Below are positions 4,105 to 36,251 of a stretch of 37,119 nucleotides of DNA, one piece after another. A program made the translations under genes and the position numbers. Under the pieces are notes generated by a model. The model ran no database searches and had not been told where the DNA came from. It saw only the letters and a program-made list of their open reading frames with translations. The DNA is from Acidobacteriota bacterium (GTDB lineage: Bacteria; Acidobacteriota; Terriglobia; Terriglobales; Acidobacteriaceae). The number at the start of each line of letters is the position of its first letter. The stretch's first letter is position 1. The stretch lies in assembly GCA_025353435.1 (NCBI GenBank), contig JANXQR010000171.1, positions 1 through 37,119 of the forward strand, read 5' to 3'.

Positions 4105-4257
4105 CTTGCTTCCCCGTGAATCCGTGGCGAGACGCCAGTATTCCTCGCACACTCTGTGTGACTGGATGCTAACGAACGGCGGGGTCGCGGAGCAACTCGC
4201 CACTGATTCTGGCACGGGCGACGACTGTACGCGAGGGCGCAGGGTATCATGGCATCC

Positions 4258-5544
4258 ATGCCGCCTTGTTTGATGCTTTTCAGGGCAATCATCTTCAGTG
4301 CGCTTTTCCTATTTCAACTGAACTCAGCGTGTACCCAGGAGACAGCGGCTTCGCGCTCCCCGATCGACGAACTCCATCGACGCTTCGACGCCGAATTGAT
4401 TGCTCATGGAGTTGTCGGCGGCGGATTCACGTTGGTGCGGCAAGGCAAGCCGGCTGAGGCGTTCTTCGCCGGCGAGGCGAATCGCGAGACGCACGAGCGG
4501 GTCGATGCGGCAACAACCTATAACTGGGCATCGATCACCAAGACCATGACGGCGATCGCGATTCTGCAGTTGCGCGATCGGGGCAAGCTCTCGCTCGATG
4601 ATCCAGCGGTGAAATATGTGCCGGAGTTGCGTCAGGTGCACGATGGGTTTGGATCGATCGATGCGGTCACGATTCGCGAATTGCTGACGCACAGCGCGGG
4701 GTTTCGCAATCCGACGTGGCCTTGGGACTGCGACGACGCGAAGGACTGCGATTGGCAGCCGTTTGAACCCACCAAGTGGGCGCAGGTGGCGGCGATGCTT
4801 CCCTATACGCACATTTCATTCAAGCCTGGCAGCAAGTGGAGCTATTCCAATCTTGGATACGTTTTTCTTGGGCAGGTTATCGAGCGCATCAGCGGCGATG
4901 ACTTTGAAGTGTACGTCGACGAGAATATCTTGAAGCCACTGGGGATGACGGAGAGCTACTTCGATCGCGCTCCGTACTTTCTTGAGAGCCATGTGGCGGC
5001 AAGCTATCTGCGGGCGGGTGACAAACTTACGCCGCAGCCGGTGAACTTTGACACGGGCATTACCACTTCGAACAGCGGATTGAAAGCGCCGATCACGGAT
5101 ATGGAAAAGTACGCGCGCTTCCTGATCGGCGCTCCGGGTAACGAGCGGTATGAGGAGGTGCTGAAGGGGAGTTCCCTGGAAGAGGCGTGGACGGGCGTGC
5201 TGCCGGCCAAGCAAGAGGGGCAGCCCGCGACACCGTACACGTCCGGGTCGCACGGATCGCCGCCGCAGATGGGGTTGGGATTCTTCGTCCTGAACGTGGA
5301 CGGACATCGCTACGTTTATCACGACGGTGACCAGGGCGGGTTTTCGGCGGAGTTGATTGTGGATACTGGAGGCAAGTGCGCAGCCATGCTGGTGGTGAAT
5401 ACGACGGACACCGGTGCTCAGGCAGCGACCGAAGCGACGCACGCGGTTTCGAATACAGAGCCCGATCCGCGAAGCGATCTTCGGCTGGCGATACGGGCCA
5501 CTCTGATCGATTCTTTTTTTGCGGCGTATGCCGGCGGGAAATGA
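4258..5544 (+). CDS. Secreted serine hydrolase, beta-lactamase/D-peptidase-like fold (class C / Pfam Beta-lactamase)
   Basis: SxxK (ASITK), LLTHSAG, YxN (WSYSN), HxG (YHDG) and an N-terminal hydrophobic signal. The start could be 4249, 4258 or 4273. Confidence 0.9.
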   Translation: MPPCLMLFRAIIFSALFLFQLNSACTQETAASRSPIDELHRRFDAELIAHGVVGGGFTLVRQGKPAEAFFAGEANRETHERVDAATTYNWASITKTMTAIAILQLRDRGKLSLDDPAVKYVPELRQVHDGFGSIDAVTIRELLTHSAGFRNPTWPWDCDDAKDCDWQPFEPTKWAQVAAMLPYTHISFKPGSKWSYSNLGYVFLGQVIERISGDDFEVYVDENILKPLGMTESYFDRAPYFLESHVAASYLRAGDKLTPQPVNFDTGITTSNSGLKAPITDMEKYARFLIGAPGNERYEEVLKGSSLEEAWTGVLPAKQEGQPATPYTSGSHGSPPQMGLGFFVLNVDGHRYVYHDGDQGGFSAELIVDTGGKCAAMLVVNTTDTGAQAATEATHAVSNTEPDPRSDLRLAIRATLIDSFFAAYAGGK

Positions 5545-6221: not shown

Positions 6222-8599
<2,378 letters not shown>

Positions 8600-8623: not shown

Positions 8624-11600
8624 CTAGAACCGGAAACGCGCGTTGAACTGGAACGAGCGCATGTTGGCGACGGAGCTTACCTGGCCAAAGTTGGAACTGC
8701 GCTGCGACTCGAGGCCTGAATAGAGGGTGGTGTACACGCCACTGTATTGCACGGTGTTGAAGACGTTGTCGGCCGTGGCGCGAAGCTCTATGCTGCGTGT
8801 GTCGCCAAACTGAATGGTCTTGGAGAGCGACATGCTATTGGATACTGTGCCGGGCCCGGTGATGGAGTTGCGCGATGCCGTACCGTAGAGGCCGGCGGGT
8901 TGCGTGAAGGCCGCGGTGTTGAACCATTGCTTCAACGAGCCGCCGCCCGCGGCGAGCGATACGCCGGGCACACGGTCGGGACGCAATGTGCCAGTAGTGC
9001 CGCGCGCTACATCAGAAATGCTGGCCTGATAAGTGGGCGTGAGCGGTGTACCGGTAGCGAAGGTGAAATTGCCGGAGACCGAAAAGCCTTCGAAGATGTG
9101 CGACGGCCGTCCGGTGGTGAGCCAGAACTTGTCTTTGCCGAAGGGAAGTTCATAGATGTAGTTGCCGCTGACTTTGTGGCGCTGATCGAATGTGGAATTG
9201 CCCTCGTCGGCAGCGATGTCCAGCCAGTTTTGGGCGACGATGCTCGAAGTGCCGCCGACCGAGCCGGCATCGTCGATGGAGTGCGAGTACTGGTAATTTG
9301 CGCCGAGCGAAATGCCGCTGGACATGCGCTTGTTGACGCGCAGCGTGCCCGCATTGAAGCGCGAGAACGCACCGTATTCCTCGAAGAAGAACGGGATGTT
9401 TGCGTGATCGGTGTTGGGGCTGCTTGGCACGGCGCGCGGCGCGATCTTCACATCGAGGTTGCTTCCGCGAGAGCCGTTATAGCCCACATTCATTACGATG
9501 CCCCAGGGCAGCGTCTTCTGCACATCAAGGTTGAATGCCTGCACGTAAGGCAGGTGGTAGTGCGGATTGACGGCGTAATTGCCGATGGCATTGGGCGCGG
9601 GAAATCCATTGGCGAGCGAGTAGCAGGCGACCTGCGGATTGGGGCAGGTGGTAGTGGCCTCGTTGGTCTGCTGGTTGGCGAAGGGCGGCTGGTGGGCCAT
9701 CGTGTTGGCAAAAGTGGAGTACTGGCTGACCGTGTAATTGATGCCGTAGCCACCGCGGATCACGGTCTGTTTGGGCAGGCGTAGCGCGAAGCCAAGGCGC
9801 GGAGCGATTGCGTACGGATAGGGCGAGACCAGCCCTCCAGGAAGCTTGCCGTAGTTGGGGCTGGTGGCACCGGCCTGGACTTGAGAGACGCTCGTGAATC
9901 CTTCGCTTGGATTGGTATCGACCATGGAGAGTCGGTTGTGTTTCTCCGTGTATGGCGCATAGAACTCGTAGCGAATGCCGTAGTTGAGCGTGAGCTTCGA
10001 GCTCGCGCGCCAGTCATCCTGCGCGTAGAGGTCGAATACGTTGTCGCGCAAGTAGCTTTTGTTTATTGAGGAATTGATGGAGGATTCCTGCGCCTCGCCA
10101 AGCAGGAAGTCTCCGAGAGAAGAGCCCGTGTAGAGGCCGGTGAAGTAGAAGGTGCCGGTGGCATTGCTGCCGCCAAGGAAGTCGCGATGCACGCGGCGAT
10201 AGTCGCCGCCGAAGCGGAAGTTGTGCTTGCCATGGATCCAGGCGAGCGTCTCGGAGAGCGAAATGGTTTGCCCGATGGAGAAGCTTGGTTGCGCCTGGTT
10301 AATACCGGTGAAGCTGGAAAGCACCACGCTTGGCAGGCCGTAGTTGAGAGGGCTTGCATTGAGCGCGCTGCCGCCGGGGCCGAGAATGCCCACCTGCGTG
10401 GCGATGTCATTGGCGCTGGTGAAGAAGTTGGTGGTGTGGGAGTTGGAGCGGTTCCAGTTGGCGTTGAAGATGCTGGTGAGCTTGCCCTTGCCCAGCGTGT
10501 ACCCGGCTTGGACGGAGTCAGAGTCCGAAGCAGTTTTGCCGCCGAGAGCCGGGACGATGTTTACATTGTCAGAGGCGGAGTGCGACCAGTTGTAATTGAC
10601 GTTAATGCTTTGGCGCAGTCCCGGCTGCGTTTGTTGCGCGTTTCGCCCGGACCGGCCACCGCCAGCACCACTGCCCATGCCGAAGTTCGAAGCGTTGGCG
10701 CCGAAGCTGCGCATGTAACGCACGCCGCCCTGCGTGGAGTTGGATTGCTGCGTGGTGAGGAGGTGGAAGTTCTGCGTATCGCCGGGCAGGTTTGGCTCGG
10801 GAATGTAATTGAGAAGCGCTACGGCCTGCGGCACCGGCGAGATGGGCGTTGCAAGGCCGGGAATATTTCCAGCGCGCTCAGCGAGTGTAGGCACGGTGGC
10901 GTATTGGTCCAGGGGGTTGGAGTTGCGCGAGCCTGAGATATTCAGGAACACAGAATCTTTGCCGCTGGGTTTGGTGACGCCGGGAATGAATGGCGCTCCC
11001 ATGAGGGTGAGACCAAAGCGATTGGTTCCCGATGCGGGCTGCTGCTGGGATTGTCCGCGCAGACTGAATGGTTCCGCATTGAGCGCGGAGTTGCTGCCGG
11101 ACCAGAAGACGGCTCCGTGGGGCTGGCTGGGGTTGAAGTTACGGAAGTTTCCGAAGCCACCACCGCCGCCGGGGCCGCCGCCGCCGAACATGGGACCGCC
11201 TCCACCAAAGCCACCACCGCCAAATCCGCCACCACCGCCGAAGAGGCCTCCCCCCGGGCCGCCGCCCTGCCCGCCAAATTGCGAGCGCATGGTTTCCATC
11301 ATGTCGCGCAGGCGGTCCATATCGACGCCGGCCATGGGGCTGACGGAGCCGGCCTGGCCCGAGATGGCTACCGAGTCGCCGCTGAAGTCGGAATTGCCGG
11401 CAGCGGAAGGAAGTACGGCTCCACTTCCGGACCCGCCTGACGCCGACCCGCCAGCGGCGATGTCTCCTGTGACTGTGCTCAGCAAGCTCAGGTTTTGCGG
11501 GCCGTTGGCTGCAAGCTGGCGAATGGCCTGTGCCATTTGATTCTGCTGTCCTTCCTGCTGCTTCTCCTGTGCGGCGGCGCGCGACGCCAGCATCAGGTCG

Positions 11601-12013
11601 AAGTTGACGGGCTGGTCATGGCTCGTCGCGTTGAGCAATGCCTCCCCTGATCCTTGCGCGAAAGCCGCGAACTGGGTGCGGAGAACGTAGCGTCCGTTTT
11701 GAGGAATCTCCATGGACCAAGCGCCGGTAATATCGGTGGTCGTGGCGTAGCGCTTACCCGTCAACGTGTTCTGCGCGGTCACGGTGACGCCGGGCAGCGG
11801 AATATTTCCACTCTTCACTGTGCCGTGGAGTTTGCCGCCGATTACGGTGTCGGGAGAAGGTACCGGGGCAGTGGGCGGCTGCGGGATGGCTTGTTCCGGC
11901 TGACTGGCTGAGGGTGCGTTTTGCTGAGTCGGAGGGACCTGCGAAGTCGCGGCAAGGGTCATGCCCATGCACAACAGCATCGACAGTATCCCCAGCCTGG
12001 CCCTTCGCAGCAT
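8624..12013 (-). CDS. Oar-like TonB-dependent receptor family outer-membrane protein with carboxypeptidase-regulatory-like N-domain
   Basis: Signal peptide; GTVKSGNIPLPGVTVTAQN...TDITGAW; YAQDDWRASSKLTLNYGIRYE; APRLGFA; VIRGGYGI; YELPFG; C-terminal QFNARFRF beta-signal. GGGAG RBS precedes ATG 12013 (the track starts at TTG 12046). Confidence 0.9.
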   Translation of the reverse strand: MLRRARLGILSMLLCMGMTLAATSQVPPTQQNAPSASQPEQAIPQPPTAPVPSPDTVIGGKLHGTVKSGNIPLPGVTVTAQNTLTGKRYATTTDITGAWSMEIPQNGRYVLRTQFAAFAQGSGEALLNATSHDQPVNFDLMLASRAAAQEKQQEGQQNQMAQAIRQLAANGPQNLSLLSTVTGDIAAGGSASGGSGSGAVLPSAAGNSDFSGDSVAISGQAGSVSPMAGVDMDRLRDMMETMRSQFGGQGGGPGGGLFGGGGGFGGGGFGGGGPMFGGGGPGGGGGFGNFRNFNPSQPHGAVFWSGSNSALNAEPFSLRGQSQQQPASGTNRFGLTLMGAPFIPGVTKPSGKDSVFLNISGSRNSNPLDQYATVPTLAERAGNIPGLATPISPVPQAVALLNYIPEPNLPGDTQNFHLLTTQQSNSTQGGVRYMRSFGANASNFGMGSGAGGGRSGRNAQQTQPGLRQSINVNYNWSHSASDNVNIVPALGGKTASDSDSVQAGYTLGKGKLTSIFNANWNRSNSHTTNFFTSANDIATQVGILGPGGSALNASPLNYGLPSVVLSSFTGINQAQPSFSIGQTISLSETLAWIHGKHNFRFGGDYRRVHRDFLGGSNATGTFYFTGLYTGSSLGDFLLGEAQESSINSSINKSYLRDNVFDLYAQDDWRASSKLTLNYGIRYEFYAPYTEKHNRLSMVDTNPSEGFTSVSQVQAGATSPNYGKLPGGLVSPYPYAIAPRLGFALRLPKQTVIRGGYGINYTVSQYSTFANTMAHQPPFANQQTNEATTTCPNPQVACYSLANGFPAPNAIGNYAVNPHYHLPYVQAFNLDVQKTLPWGIVMNVGYNGSRGSNLDVKIAPRAVPSSPNTDHANIPFFFEEYGAFSRFNAGTLRVNKRMSSGISLGANYQYSHSIDDAGSVGGTSSIVAQNWLDIAADEGNSTFDQRHKVSGNYIYELPFGKDKFWLTTGRPSHIFEGFSVSGNFTFATGTPLTPTYQASISDVARGTTGTLRPDRVPGVSLAAGGGSLKQWFNTAAFTQPAGLYGTASRNSITGPGTVSNSMSLSKTIQFGDTRSIELRATADNVFNTVQYSGVYTTLYSGLESQRSSNFGQVSSVANMRSFQFNARFRF

Positions 12014-31358: not shown

Positions 31359-33755
31359 CTAAGCCGCCTTCTTCGGCGCCTGGGTGAGCAGGTTCTTGAT
31401 AGAGTCGGCACCGAAGCCGAGCGCGATCACGGCGATGGTTCCGGCGAGAAAGTCGAGTTTGCGCAGTTGATCAATTGCGCCCGCTTCGATGCCGGCGAGA
31501 GCCACGCCGAACGCGAGGCCGAAGCGGACGATTTCGACCCATGCGCGCGACCGGCCCTGGCGCTTGCGGGGGTCAAGCTTGATCTGCTCATGAATCTTGG
31601 CGGAGACGGAAACCTCGTCCAGTTTCTGCACGGTTAGCAAAATCCGGGTAGTGAAACCGCGCTTTTGCCGCTTGCGTTTTTGCTGCCATTTCTTCCACTG
31701 TTTTGAGAGCCAGGATCTTTCCTCCTTGTCATGTTTGGTGTGGTGTTGGTGGTCGGCGGACTTGTGCGTCGTTCCTTCGTCGGGTTGATCGCCATCCCAT
31801 CCGAAGACGGTTTCGGGCTCGTTTCCAACGAAGTAGTGGCAGACCTTCGATCCCTCTTCGAACATGTCGCCAGGAAAGGTCCATCGGAAGCTGAGGCAGT
31901 TGAGGGCGGCGGCGTTTTTGAATCGTGGATTGTCGAACGACAAAGAAAAGTAGATAGGCAGGTAGGGCCTGGCACGTTGCGTGTCGAATACGATTCTAGC
32001 CACCGGCTTCTTGTCGACTTCGCGCTTCCAGATCGCCTCAATCACGTCTTCTTCGTAGACGTTCTCGCGCATCTCCTGCACCAGGATGCGGGCCTCACGC
32101 AGACATTTCCAGGAGAGGGTGCCGAGTTGCTCGATGAGCCGGCACTCGCGGGCCATTAAGCGCTCGCAGGCGTCTTTCCCTGCGTTGGGGCATTGGGGGG
32201 TCCCGCCCTTGGCAATGCAGGCGCGCACCATGGCGTAATCCAGGATGATATGACCGGCCGCGATGGCGTGGTCGATGGAGAAGAGCATGGGTGGAACAAT
32301 GTTGGTGGGATCGTCGAATGCGAACCCGAAAAACCTGAAAATTCCGGGGAGGGCGGCCTGCAGATCGGGGTACAAGTCCTTGGGAAATACGGCGAGGCGC
32401 GTGGTCAGTTCCTTGAAGTTGGCCGCGACGCGCTTGGCCTGCTGTGCGCTATCGGCAAGCGCGTCCATCTCGCTGTCGGCCTTGGTGACTAGATTGTTGG
32501 CTTCAGCCAGAACATCGGCCGGGAGGTTGAATGAGTGAAGTTGCTCGCAGGCGGACTGCAGGACCTGGTCGACAACATCGGTTGCGGAAGGCGGCGCGGT
32601 GGCGGCGATGTCTTCAAATCGGTGGCTCAGTTCGTCGATTTGCTCGGCGATGGTGAGGCGCTTGTCGAGTCGGGCGATATCGATGGCGACGGCATCGATT
32701 TTTTCCGCGATGGAGAGCGAATACCAAGTGGCCTCCCTGAGGGCGAACTCGATTTTTTTGCGCTCTAGCCGCAACAGGACGCGGACATAGGAATCGACGC
32801 GATAGGTCACGCTGCTGGTGCGGTCTCCCAATGCGGCAAGCTGCTTTTCGTAAGCGATGCGCTTGAGCATGTTGGGGAGGATGGAATTGGCCAACAGGGA
32901 CAGTATCCCCCCAAGAAGAAGGAAGCCCATAACGTAGAGGGCAAAGAGTGACTCCGTGACCTCCGGGCCAAGGCGATTCATGCGCAGGCTCACCGGGATG
33001 GGATGGAGGTCGAACAGCCGGACGTCAACTCCGGATAGGGTATGCGGCCTCAGCACCAACATGCCGGTCTTGCTTTGGGGACGGAAGAAATCGATGGGAG
33101 AATAAACTTCCTCGCTAGGCTTGAATACGATGCGAGACTCACCACCGGGTGGAAGGGTGGTGATGCCCTTTCCTTCCTCCGTGCCGCCAAGCACGAACCG
33201 CCAGTCAAGAGCGAGATAGTCCTTGCTGCTGTTCTTGAGAGCGATGACTACGGATCGATCGTAGGTAAATTCGAGCGGTTGATCGGAAGTGCCGTGACCT
33301 TCGAGCGCCACGTTGAGAGGTGTATCAACGGCGACCACGCGGAGCGGGCCAAGCGAATCGCCGCCGCTGAACAGCGGAGCTTCCGCGCTCATGGCGCCGG
33401 CCATGCCTGCGATCTCGATTGCGACGTCGACGGATTGGCCGGGTGCGAGGGTGGTTGGCAAGTCGCCGCCAGATTCGGAGACGAATTTCACCTTTGGCGT
33501 TTCAACTCTGGCGTGCGATGTTTCGTCGAGGAAGATGCCGACATCGAGTTTGAGGGGCTGAGCCGAAGATCCGGCATTGGTCAGCTTGAGCCGAGCGGCG
33601 CCAGTTCCGCTTCTGACCACGACCGGCTGAGACGCCACGAGCTTGATTTGAGCTTGCGCCGGGATGCCGGGCCCAAATAGGCCGAGCAATCCGGCAACTG
33701 CCGCAATCGATTTGTGTGCACGAAAAGTGCCAGGACGAGTGCCTTGCGTACCCAT
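31359..33755 (-). CDS. Hypothetical multi-domain membrane protein (798 aa)
   Basis: Long ORF filling the gap between neighbouring genes; signal peptide (AQA-Q), beta-rich N-region, central TM helix, helical region and two C-terminal hydrophobic helices. No family recognised. Confidence 0.82.
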   Translation of the reverse strand: MGTQGTRPGTFRAHKSIAAVAGLLGLFGPGIPAQAQIKLVASQPVVVRSGTGAARLKLTNAGSSAQPLKLDVGIFLDETSHARVETPKVKFVSESGGDLPTTLAPGQSVDVAIEIAGMAGAMSAEAPLFSGGDSLGPLRVVAVDTPLNVALEGHGTSDQPLEFTYDRSVVIALKNSSKDYLALDWRFVLGGTEEGKGITTLPPGGESRIVFKPSEEVYSPIDFFRPQSKTGMLVLRPHTLSGVDVRLFDLHPIPVSLRMNRLGPEVTESLFALYVMGFLLLGGILSLLANSILPNMLKRIAYEKQLAALGDRTSSVTYRVDSYVRVLLRLERKKIEFALREATWYSLSIAEKIDAVAIDIARLDKRLTIAEQIDELSHRFEDIAATAPPSATDVVDQVLQSACEQLHSFNLPADVLAEANNLVTKADSEMDALADSAQQAKRVAANFKELTTRLAVFPKDLYPDLQAALPGIFRFFGFAFDDPTNIVPPMLFSIDHAIAAGHIILDYAMVRACIAKGGTPQCPNAGKDACERLMARECRLIEQLGTLSWKCLREARILVQEMRENVYEEDVIEAIWKREVDKKPVARIVFDTQRARPYLPIYFSLSFDNPRFKNAAALNCLSFRWTFPGDMFEEGSKVCHYFVGNEPETVFGWDGDQPDEGTTHKSADHQHHTKHDKEERSWLSKQWKKWQQKRKRQKRGFTTRILLTVQKLDEVSVSAKIHEQIKLDPRKRQGRSRAWVEIVRFGLAFGVALAGIEAGAIDQLRKLDFLAGTIAVIALGFGADSIKNLLTQAPKKAA

Positions 33756-33910: not shown

Positions 33911-34975
33911 CTATTCCTGCGGCGCGGTCGGTTTCTTCGTCTTACGCACCACGGGGAAGTAGCCTGTGCGGGTGCGGACGTTGAGCTTGCCCAGACCCTT
34001 GGACTCTGCGCTCACCTGGACTCGCCGAAAGCCAGGCTCGGTGCTCGGCTTGGTGGAGTGATAAACGATGGTGTATTGGCTGCGGATATCGCGCGCAACT
34101 TCGGCGGCAATCTGGTCAACCTGCTCGAGCGATTTTGGGAAGAATGCGATGCCGCCAGTTTCGGTGGAAAGCATCTCCATGGCGCGGCGGGCATGTCGCA
34201 CTTCCGAGTGGCTCATCTCGTCACCAAAAAGCAGGCCGATGGAGTAGATGACCGGCCCGGAAAGTTGCTGCACGCGGCGGATGGTCTGCTCCAGGTTGAG
34301 CGTGGATGCATTGTCTTCGCCGTCGGTGATGAGCACCAGGACCTGCTTGGGTCGCTTGGCATCGATTGACAGCTTGTCTGCCGAGGCCACCACTGCGTCG
34401 TAAAGCGCAGTGCCGCCACGTGACTCAATGTGGCTCAAGCCTTCGCGCAGTTTGTTCACGTTTGAAGTGAACTCCTGGTCGATGAATGCTTCGTCGGAGA
34501 AGTTCACGACGAAAGCTTCGTCCTGAGGATTCGAAGCAGCGATCAGGTCAAGGGCGCTCTTGTTGACCGCAGGGCGCTTCTTCGACATGGAACCGGAGTT
34601 ATCGACCACCAATGCGATTGAAACCGGCAGGTCAGAATGCTGGAAGCTGATGATGGACTGCTTGACGCCGTCCTCAAAGACCTGAAAATCGTCTTTGGTG
34701 AGGGTCTGCACCAGGTGGCCCTTATCGTCGAGGATTGTGGCATTCAACACCACTTCTTCCACGTCGGTATGGAGTATGAACCCGCTGCCCTCCTTCTGCA
34801 CGGTCTCACGTGAAGGCGCTGGGGCGTTTGCATCCGGCGACCGCACCGGATCGCGATCCACCGTGAGCGGAGGCGCTTGATCGGGGGCCGCCGGCTTGGT
34901 GGTCTGTTGCGCTGATAACGAAAGTGCCGCTCCGGCGAGAACGATCGCGAGGAGGGCGTTATTGCAATGGCGCAT
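33911..34975 (-). CDS. Secreted acidobacterial VWFA-related domain protein (intact MIDAS)
   Basis: DNSGS, GGTALYDA, ITDGEDN, ETGG, RTRTGYF and a signal peptide. Start is 34975 or 34993. Confidence 0.9.
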   Translation of the reverse strand: MRHCNNALLAIVLAGAALSLSAQQTTKPAAPDQAPPLTVDRDPVRSPDANAPAPSRETVQKEGSGFILHTDVEEVVLNATILDDKGHLVQTLTKDDFQVFEDGVKQSIISFQHSDLPVSIALVVDNSGSMSKKRPAVNKSALDLIAASNPQDEAFVVNFSDEAFIDQEFTSNVNKLREGLSHIESRGGTALYDAVVASADKLSIDAKRPKQVLVLITDGEDNASTLNLEQTIRRVQQLSGPVIYSIGLLFGDEMSHSEVRHARRAMEMLSTETGGIAFFPKSLEQVDQIAAEVARDIRSQYTIVYHSTKPSTEPGFRRVQVSAESKGLGKLNVRTRTGYFPVVRKTKKPTAPQE

Positions 34976-36038
34976 AGTAGCCGGTGCGTGCATGAACGGT
35001 AAGCGGCGGCAGCCCCTGAGGTGGATTCAACTTGACCTTAACTTTACGCCACTTGCCGTCGCGGCGCATCTCTTTGGGTGTATATCCGATCACGTATTGG
35101 TTGCGCAGCTCGGTTGAGATTTTCTCGGCAATGTCGCTCATTTCGCTCAGGTCGTCGACACGGAACATGCGGCCGCCTGTCTCCTCGCACAGTTCGTTGA
35201 GCAGGATGGGGCCGGAGCGCTCCTCGGGCGTGGCAGCATACGCATCGAAGATGCCGATCGAGTAAATCTCCACATCCGACTCGCGGACCTGGGAGCGAAC
35301 TTCCCCCTCGGTGTAGCGGGAGCGATTGTCGCCGCCATCGGAGACCACCAGCAGGGCCTTGCGCTCGTGGCGTGCGTCCTTCATCTTTGACACACCGTAG
35401 TAGATGGCGTCGAGCAGCGCGGTGCGGTGTCCGCTGCGAACCGTGGCAAGGCGCGCCTGAATGTCCTCCACCGAGTTGGTGAAGTCTTCAATGAGTTCGG
35501 GTCGGTCATTAAAGCCGATCACAAAGAATTCATCCTGCGGATTGGCCGTTTTTACGAACTGCACAATCGACTCGCGCGCACGGATGAGTTTGGAGGTCAT
35601 GGAGCCGCTCAGGTCGAAGATGATGCCGATTGATACCGGGGCATCTTCGCTGGCGAATGTCTTGATCTTCTGCTCCCCGTTGTTCTCGAAGACCTTGAAG
35701 TCCTCCTGCTCGAGGCCGGTCACGAGGCGGTTCATGGGATCGGTCACGGTGATGGGGACCAGGACCATGTCCACATTCATGCGGATCACGCTGCCCGGCC
35801 GCACCTTGCCGGCCGTATCCGCCGCGTTGAGGGCGGGCGCTTCAGTGCCCTTAGGTTCTCCAGGGGCGGTTGTGCTTGTGGAAGGTGGGGGCACGTGCAC
35901 AGTGTTGAGCGGATCGTCCTGGGCTTTGGAAGCTTGGGTACAAAGGAGCGCAACGAAACTCAGCAGGCAAACAGCACCCGAGAATCGAGGGACACACGCG
36001 GTTTGATTGCGAGTCGAGGGTAAAATATCCGTCTTCAT
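34959..36038 (-). CDS. Secreted acidobacterial VWFA-related domain protein (intact MIDAS)
   Basis: DLSGS, TALLDA, VSDGGDN, ETGG, DGKWRKVKV, ARTGYYAP. Start taken at ATG 36038 (uncertain). Confidence 0.9.
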   Translation of the reverse strand: MKTDILPSTRNQTACVPRFSGAVCLLSFVALLCTQASKAQDDPLNTVHVPPPSTSTTAPGEPKGTEAPALNAADTAGKVRPGSVIRMNVDMVLVPITVTDPMNRLVTGLEQEDFKVFENNGEQKIKTFASEDAPVSIGIIFDLSGSMTSKLIRARESIVQFVKTANPQDEFFVIGFNDRPELIEDFTNSVEDIQARLATVRSGHRTALLDAIYYGVSKMKDARHERKALLVVSDGGDNRSRYTEGEVRSQVRESDVEIYSIGIFDAYAATPEERSGPILLNELCEETGGRMFRVDDLSEMSDIAEKISTELRNQYVIGYTPKEMRRDGKWRKVKVKLNPPQGLPPLTVHARTGYYAPLQ

Positions 36039-36251
36039 ACCGCCGCACCGATAAGTAGTGAGTGATGGTAGCACGGCAGACGCGACACGCGCGTGAAGTT
36101 CATCCCACCGCTGTTATCTCTTGACAGGGCAACACCCTGGCCTATTGCGGCGCTGGGATACAATCGAGGCTGGATCCTAAGGCAGTTCTCTCGAAAAAAG
36201 AACGGAACCGGCGGAACTGCCGCCCTTTTCCCACGGAGCAAGTCTTTCCGC

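Follow-up and report, generated by a model that had tools for sequence, protein, structure and literature searches.

A plug-less Oar-type barrel paired with an exported VWA-domain protein in Acidobacteria

We found that the window (the whole stretch of 37,119 nucleotides analysed here) encodes a genuine and novel form of Oar-type transporter, a protein of 1129 residues (P0001; 8624..12013, minus strand, intact reading frame with an ATG start) for which our analysis supports the loss of the folded plug. The next gene, which starts 24 nt past the barrel stop, encodes an exported VWA protein of the TIGR03436 type (P0002; 6443..8599, minus strand). Since the family is widespread, has lost the folded plug and has kept the partner gene, its large pore must be sealed in another way. 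We give an even chance to the reading that the VWA protein is the gate of a two-protein channel, replacing the plug, with a Gly/Phe-rich chain acting as a variable soft filler. The first-pass annotation had offered two options for this barrel, a flexible FG mesh and plugging by a partner protein, and the second fits best.

The barrel and its missing plug

P0001 begins with a signal peptide, as judged by eye, and a CarboxypepD_reg N-domain (aa 62-140; 11594..11830, minus strand; PF13620, 34.9 bits, above the cut-off) that is confident in the structural model. Most of the remaining chain is a predicted 22-strand TBDT-type barrel (aa 298-1129; 8627..11122, minus strand), assigned from the model and from a Pfam match to PF25183 (aa 298-1122, 499 bits), and it ends in the C-terminal Phe, in agreement with the earlier description of an intact barrel. 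AlphaFold2, run with a 70-sequence alignment, gave a confident barrel (mean pLDDT 78) with 22 long strands, counted by hand, and with long extracellular loops that were also modelled with confidence. Comparison of this model with solved structures returned the TonB-dependent transporters YddB, FusA and BtuB as best matches (Z 13.0, rmsd 4.9, 595 aligned). A sequence search of solved structures with the barrel alignment gave low-complexity matches only, and the ESM Atlas, queried with a barrel homologue, gave nothing beyond the same family.

The low-complexity linker between N-domain and barrel, previously put at about 160 residues, measures 157 (aa 141-297; window 11593-11123). No Plug domain was found in P0001 by the Pfam scan that had been suggested as a check, though PF07715 alone is a weak test, as it matched 8 of 9 plugged Oar controls and just 1 of them above its cut-off. 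Its absence was therefore dropped as sole proof of plug loss and, because PF07715 is a weak judge of Oar plugs, we made our own plug profile from 16 plugged Oar paralogues of this genome. This profile scored plugged controls at 102-145 bits and all plug-less family members at no more than 7 bits, and it found a plug in 0 of the 66 full linkers of the family. The plug motifs LDG.DN, DAVQEF, AEYG and TKSGTN, already reported missing, occur nowhere in P0001, and residues 149-292 were predicted with pLDDT below 50, the alignment of the linker being poor. The profile and the model thus bear out the claim that this Oar-like receptor has lost its folded plug.

When the N-terminal region was used as query, 2605 relatives received a score. 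None of the 120 matches listed is annotated with a plug, and those that have a name come from Acidobacteria, chiefly Terracidiphilus. The 150 top-ranking cluster representatives included 107 in which the N-domain and the start of the barrel were both present; 105 of these lack a plug, the other 2 being ordinary plugged Oars, and the family representatives have linkers of 53-293 aa. A tree of 39 barrels, made with a quick method, split 22 plug-less rows from 17 plugged ones with an SH-aLRT of 100. This genome holds a second plug-less barrel, on contig C696, which belongs to a paralogous group that we call subfamily B and has an 83-residue Pro/Ala-rich linker with one FG; two DUF3738 genes lie upstream of this barrel and its VWA gene (L031:1504-4611 and 2-1630, respectively, minus strand). 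Three records with the pair are labelled Verrucomicrobia or Acetobacteraceae (L199, L202, L185), probably wrongly. Their sequences are close to Acidobacteriaceae and two of them have DUF5666-type and TPR-type neighbours, so that they were not taken as evidence of a wider range.

In another set of relatives (L095-L100; genomes G148, G102, G124, G180, G136 and G055) the N-domain is swapped for a domain of about 250 residues with no Pfam match, and in G136 and G055 the barrel gene has a split reading frame. The replacement domain, which has a G/F/R loop of its own, gave a weak MucB/RseB match in one of four cases (E 0.077), and it looks LolA-like.

Conserved motifs and the Gly/Phe-rich chain of the linker

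The linker opens with a Q-rich predicted helix (aa 143-165; 11519..11587, minus strand; from DSSP of the model and the alignment), which in the alignment occupies the place of the TonB box of plugged Oars. Two short motifs follow, motif 1 of the GxQNLSL type (aa 171-178; 11480..11503, minus strand), similar to GRNF-x-x-L, with which the Oar plug begins, and motif 2, DSVAISG in P0001 and DGFLVNG in subfamily B (aa 213-219; 11357..11377, minus strand), which was defined by a strict pattern and PSSM comparisons. A helix predicted with low confidence from the alignment and the model (aa 231-245; 11279..11323, minus strand) stands ahead of the G/F-rich chain, and an FGN-x-R-type anchor closes this chain before strand 1. 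Using patterns that were written after the sequences had been seen, an FQxLxV-like motif 1 was found in 35 of 77 linkers (4.6 in shuffled sequences), the strict heptamer of motif 2 in 75 of 105 (2.5 shuffled), an L/V/I/M-Pro pair between the two motifs in 32 of 77 (8.4 shuffled) and the anchor in 50 of 105 (3 shuffled); the Gly of motif 2 is kept in 49 of 50 members. In subfamily B just 29 conserved residues follow motif 2 (14/14), with no FG repeat.

These motifs come in the same order as GRNF..L, LVPG and FSVNG in the N-terminal half of the Oar plug. FSVNG is the sole plug window to which motif 2 can be fitted, with about 5 bits, in each of the three sequence groups. Alignment of the upstream motifs to the plug beat 100 of 100 column shuffles, and motif 1 reached an hhalign score of 14.8 against 7.4±1.4 for shuffled columns (P=0.06), with linker-plug P values of 0.06-0.17 overall, picked after several comparisons. 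The whole-linker profile-profile comparison was not significant (P 0.15-0.17), 24 of 100 shuffles reached the score of the subfamily-B linker, and the C-terminal half of the plug and the TonB-box segment gave no signal above reversed sequences against the linker. The plug-remnant reading is thus statistically weak. As a TonB-box-like site, DSVAISG scored best in 26 of 50 members, all of them among the 36 with long linkers and none among the 14 of subfamily B; across the groups, motif 2 agrees better with the plug strand FSVNG. The short motifs GxQNLSL, DSVAISG and FGNxR are probably remnants of a plug or a TonB box, and the linker may be a decayed plug whose second half has been replaced by the helix and the G/F chain.

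This chain (aa 246-293; 11135..11278, minus strand) contains 31 G, 8 F and 6 FG dipeptides in 48 residues, is predicted to be disordered from its composition and a pLDDT below 50, and is richer in FG than any other of the 17 glycine-rich windows in the open reading frames of this genome. The first-pass annotation had compared it with the FG mesh of nucleoporins. A predicted disordered FG chain is indeed present and is kept in close relatives, with 2-7 copies of FG in all 114 scored homologues (of 119), but the FG count runs from 0 to 10 across 105 distant members, and 19 of 107 scored linkers have none; in 63 further linkers with a match to the motif pattern it runs from 0 to 8, with zero in 4. 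Among 71 long distant linkers 11 lack FG altogether, and PG is more enriched (278 vs 186±10 shuffled) than FG. Conservation of FG spacing across orthologues, proposed earlier as a check, was not seen, nor was that of FG density: successive FG stand anywhere between 2 and 74 residues apart with no fixed rule, and the repeat is absent from subfamily B. An FG mesh of the nucleoporin kind is therefore a weak reading, possible but secondary. A strongly glycine-rich linker was seen in 85 of 125 members and not in the other 40; the Gly-rich chain is not required and follows no repeat rule. Its presence in those 85, often alongside a second such chain, argues for some selection on it; flexible Gly-rich chains are widespread, and many lineages probably keep them under selection. 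A plugged TonB-type barrel of this genome (G000:C742:25-3240, minus strand) also has a glycine-rich run of its own, with 2 FG near the C-terminus.

The second chain is a G/R/F-rich insert (aa 441-461; 10631..10693, minus strand; pLDDT below 50), predicted to be disordered, in the periplasmic turn that joins strand 4 to strand 5. The median length of this turn is 17 aa; in plugged Oars (30) and subfamily-B barrels (16) it is 3 aa. The median lumen charge is +6 versus +2.5, a small difference with overlapping ranges, and charge complementarity of the lumen was set aside as an argument for this reason.

These features could also be read as a main gate made by the G/F chain and the second insert, a soft plug tethered to strand 1 that TonB would pull through DSVAISG, with the VWA protein as a separate or accessory element. 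The chain occupies the usual position of the plug, and in the 71 long linkers FG is enriched (207 vs 143±9 in shuffles) and F is the dominant aromatic (5.3%, versus 0.2% W and 0.1% Y). In addition, of 51 barrels whose turn is G-rich, 47 have a G-rich linker too, although these kin are not independent, and untrimmed structural alignments lay some of the low-confidence linker over solved plug regions, which is weak evidence. A role for TonB would be consistent with the high rank of DSVAISG in long-linker members, with its E..I spacing, shared with residues E118/I122 of the Oar box as given in PMC6434023, and with the 18 TonB_C matches in this genome, none of which was found among the window proteins scanned with Pfam. 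However, the chain is missing in subfamily B and in about a third of the members, its FG content obeys no rule, similar G/F/R runs occur in adjacent exported proteins and in the unrelated N-domain of other lineages, and the motifs of subfamily B score negative or near zero as TonB boxes in 14 of 14 cases. We consider this reading rather unlikely.

The barrel-VWA gene pair and the proposed gate

A VWA gene lies directly downstream of the barrel gene in 27 of 27 readable loci (30 in total, 3 of which end at a contig edge) and in 19 of 20 hand-picked second-tier barrel loci, the exception being plugged. Starting from the VWA protein, a barrel was found upstream in 79 of 79 readable loci (80 in total, 1 without upstream DNA). 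Additionally, in a sample of 151 genomes of the phylum, in which scoring covered 5 and 7 candidates per genome and copies may be missed, the 20 top VWA loci (at least 593 bits, the next tier reaching at most 313) adjoin the 20 barrels of the family in the same 16 genomes. Thirty loci of this sample comprised 15 plug-less barrels with VWA, 13 plugged ones without it, 1 VWA with a cut barrel N-terminus and 1 that gave no result. No VWA gene was found in the 1.5-kb flanks of the 13 plugged controls, and none of 14 weaker VWA paralogues is immediately preceded by a barrel gene on its own strand.

Each barrel subfamily keeps its own VWA copy, and the pair persists without the FG chain, in subfamily B, and with the replaced N-domain, in 6 genomes. 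A natural barrel-VWA fusion was not found among longer proteins at E 0.001, which is weak evidence, and terminator-like hairpins between the two genes were at chance level (4 found, 7.2 expected). Other neighbours seen around the pair are DUF5666, DUF3738 and TPR genes; a DUF5666 gene precedes it in several lineages (L083, L088, L092) and a TPR gene follows it in some, and neither flanks the pair in this window. No claim is based on the unpublished genome G063. We found no description of the pair in the literature within our reach, most subscription papers and supplements lying outside it.

P0002 matches TIGR03436 with 249.2 bits (cut-off 81.25), and its model predicts a beta domain into which a VWA domain is inserted, followed by two Ig-like domains. 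The VWA fold was matched to solved structures with Z 15.8, and a sequence search of solved structures with the VWA protein found nothing. Two conserved loops of the VWA protein, both of low confidence and unstructured in the monomer model, are candidate barrel-binding sites: an acidic one (7895..7999, minus strand) with a net charge of -6 to -13 in 35 of 35 sequences, and one rich in invariant residues that starts D-x-R-G-L (7640..7720, minus strand), selected on conservation and the model. The barrel chain past the motifs ranges from neutral to basic in each of 50 members.

Several other genes were recorded beside this subject. Two more tandem VWA-domain genes, distant paralogues of P0002, lie at window 33911-36074 (minus strand), with an open reading frame of 798 aa without Pfam matches downstream of them (31359-33755), and the gene at 4249-5544 (plus strand) encodes a protein similar to serine beta-lactamases (PF00144) that falls well short of every class C cut-off. 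Elsewhere in this genome, the C-terminal piece of a subfamily-B-type VWA gene (G000:C777:9126-9776, minus strand) lies less than 3 kb from a plugged Oar gene; it may be the end that the C696 gene lacks, or a remnant. The VWA matches L108 (G054:C28) and L116 (G055:C24) contain one in-frame TAG each.

Under the gating reading, to which we gave an even chance above, the VWA protein would dock at the periplasmic mouth of the barrel as a separate gate or cap, and the G/F-rich chain would be a variable floppy filler between the remnant plug motifs, which in turn may attach to the wall of the barrel or to the VWA protein. In this arrangement the acidic VWA loop would contact the Arg-rich chains and a lumen that is mildly basic. 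As the VWA domain is larger than a plug, we infer that at most its loops would enter the lumen, and opening would follow movement or release of the VWA protein, possibly with TonB acting on DSVAISG. A joint version, in which a disordered Gly/Phe/Arg seal at the periplasmic mouth would be controlled by the VWA protein as an integrin-I-like cap, is a tentative one and probably not correct as it stands.

The pairing of the genes fits the roles of cargo and lid equally, and the barrel could instead be a dedicated exporter or surface anchor for a VWA-Ig adhesin or lid. M. xanthus Oar secretes PopC (PMC6434023), which sets a precedent for this reading, and the strict one-to-one pairing also speaks for it; that Oar secretion needs the plug and the TonB box (PMC6434023) speaks against it. 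The model of P0002 resembles the VWA and Ig domains of adhesins, among many others, but its metal site looks incomplete: the first and last Asp of the MIDAS are kept in 32 and 35 of 35 sequences, and the fifth DxSxS position is hydrophobic (M, L or A) in all 35. Typical surface adhesins are not highly conserved, contrary to the VWA protein, which is 84-94% identical between close relatives versus 64-91% for the N-terminal part of the barrel. We hold the exporter role to be unlikely.

It is quite improbable that the remnant motifs fold as a mini-plug and leave a size-limited pore like that of the Type S transporters, with a VWA protein that would be co-expressed and non-gating. Bacteroidota are reported to have transporters whose plug is reduced or absent, and a transporter from which the plug was deleted still worked (bioRxiv 2025.11.13.688124); subfamily B keeps a fixed conserved segment of 29 residues, and the confidently modelled extracellular loops could narrow the pore. 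Against this, the AlphaFold2 model of P0001, in which the linker alignment was poor, contains no confident mini-plug, and the strict VWA pairing would be left unexplained. Finally, an artefact or decayed gene, suggested by low complexity alone, is practically out of the question and is refuted by conservation across families: the frame is intact, there are 2605 scored relatives with conserved motifs, and an assembly slip was dismissed because contigs from 4 runs (one study, possibly the source of this DNA) span the barrel gene with no indels and 114 close homologues have the same type of segment.

Comparison with known systems

If the VWA protein caps the pore in soil Acidobacteria, this would be an undescribed way of gating such channels, and an unexplained Acidobacterial VWA family gains its first testable partner. 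Since this genome has both subfamilies, one with the G/F chain and one without it, it provides a natural control for gating by a disordered chain.

FG nucleoporins carry disordered chains of FG dipeptides at a channel, and P0001 has likewise a predicted disordered FG chain at its channel, with the 6 FG in 48 residues. Unlike nucleoporins, there is one chain per barrel, with 0-10 FG and Gly/Arg/Pro spacers, it is missing in about a third of the members, and we know of no receptor-mediated passage for P0001-type barrels. LptD-LptE and SprA-Plug/PorV are barrels of 26 and 36 strands, respectively, plugged by a separate protein. The gate proposed here would similarly come from a second gene product, whose gene is tied to the loss of the plug, but the LptD and SprA barrels are unrelated in sequence to P0001 and their partners are not VWA proteins.

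Among TIGR03436 VWA proteins, P0002 belongs to an orthologous subgroup tied to the barrel, in contrast to the 14 lower-scoring paralogues described above. In the parts of PMC3174227 available to us, TonB receptors and VWA proteins appear solely as expanded paralogue families. Bacteroidota transporters with small or absent plugs, as reported in bioRxiv 2025.11.13.688124, give plug reduction itself a precedent, and their Type S resembles P0001 in its TBDT-type barrel and its reduced or unannotated plug. Type S belongs to another phylum, is lidless and is associated with CAZymes, as far as that source describes it, whereas the P0001 family has a full-size barrel and a dedicated gene for a soluble partner.

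The closest comparison is with Oar itself. TBDTs are defined by a barrel and a plug, and Oar requires plug and TonB box for the secretion of PopC, according to the available text of PMC6434023; P0001, which fails the plug test, would for that reason work at most like an Oar. It shares with M. xanthus Oar (MXAN_1450) the CarboxypepD_reg extension, the PF25183 barrel, with 22 strands as predicted here, and the C-terminal Phe. It differs from Oar in having no folded plug and no TonB box directly past the N-domain, and in carrying a predicted disordered G/F chain and an obligate VWA neighbour.
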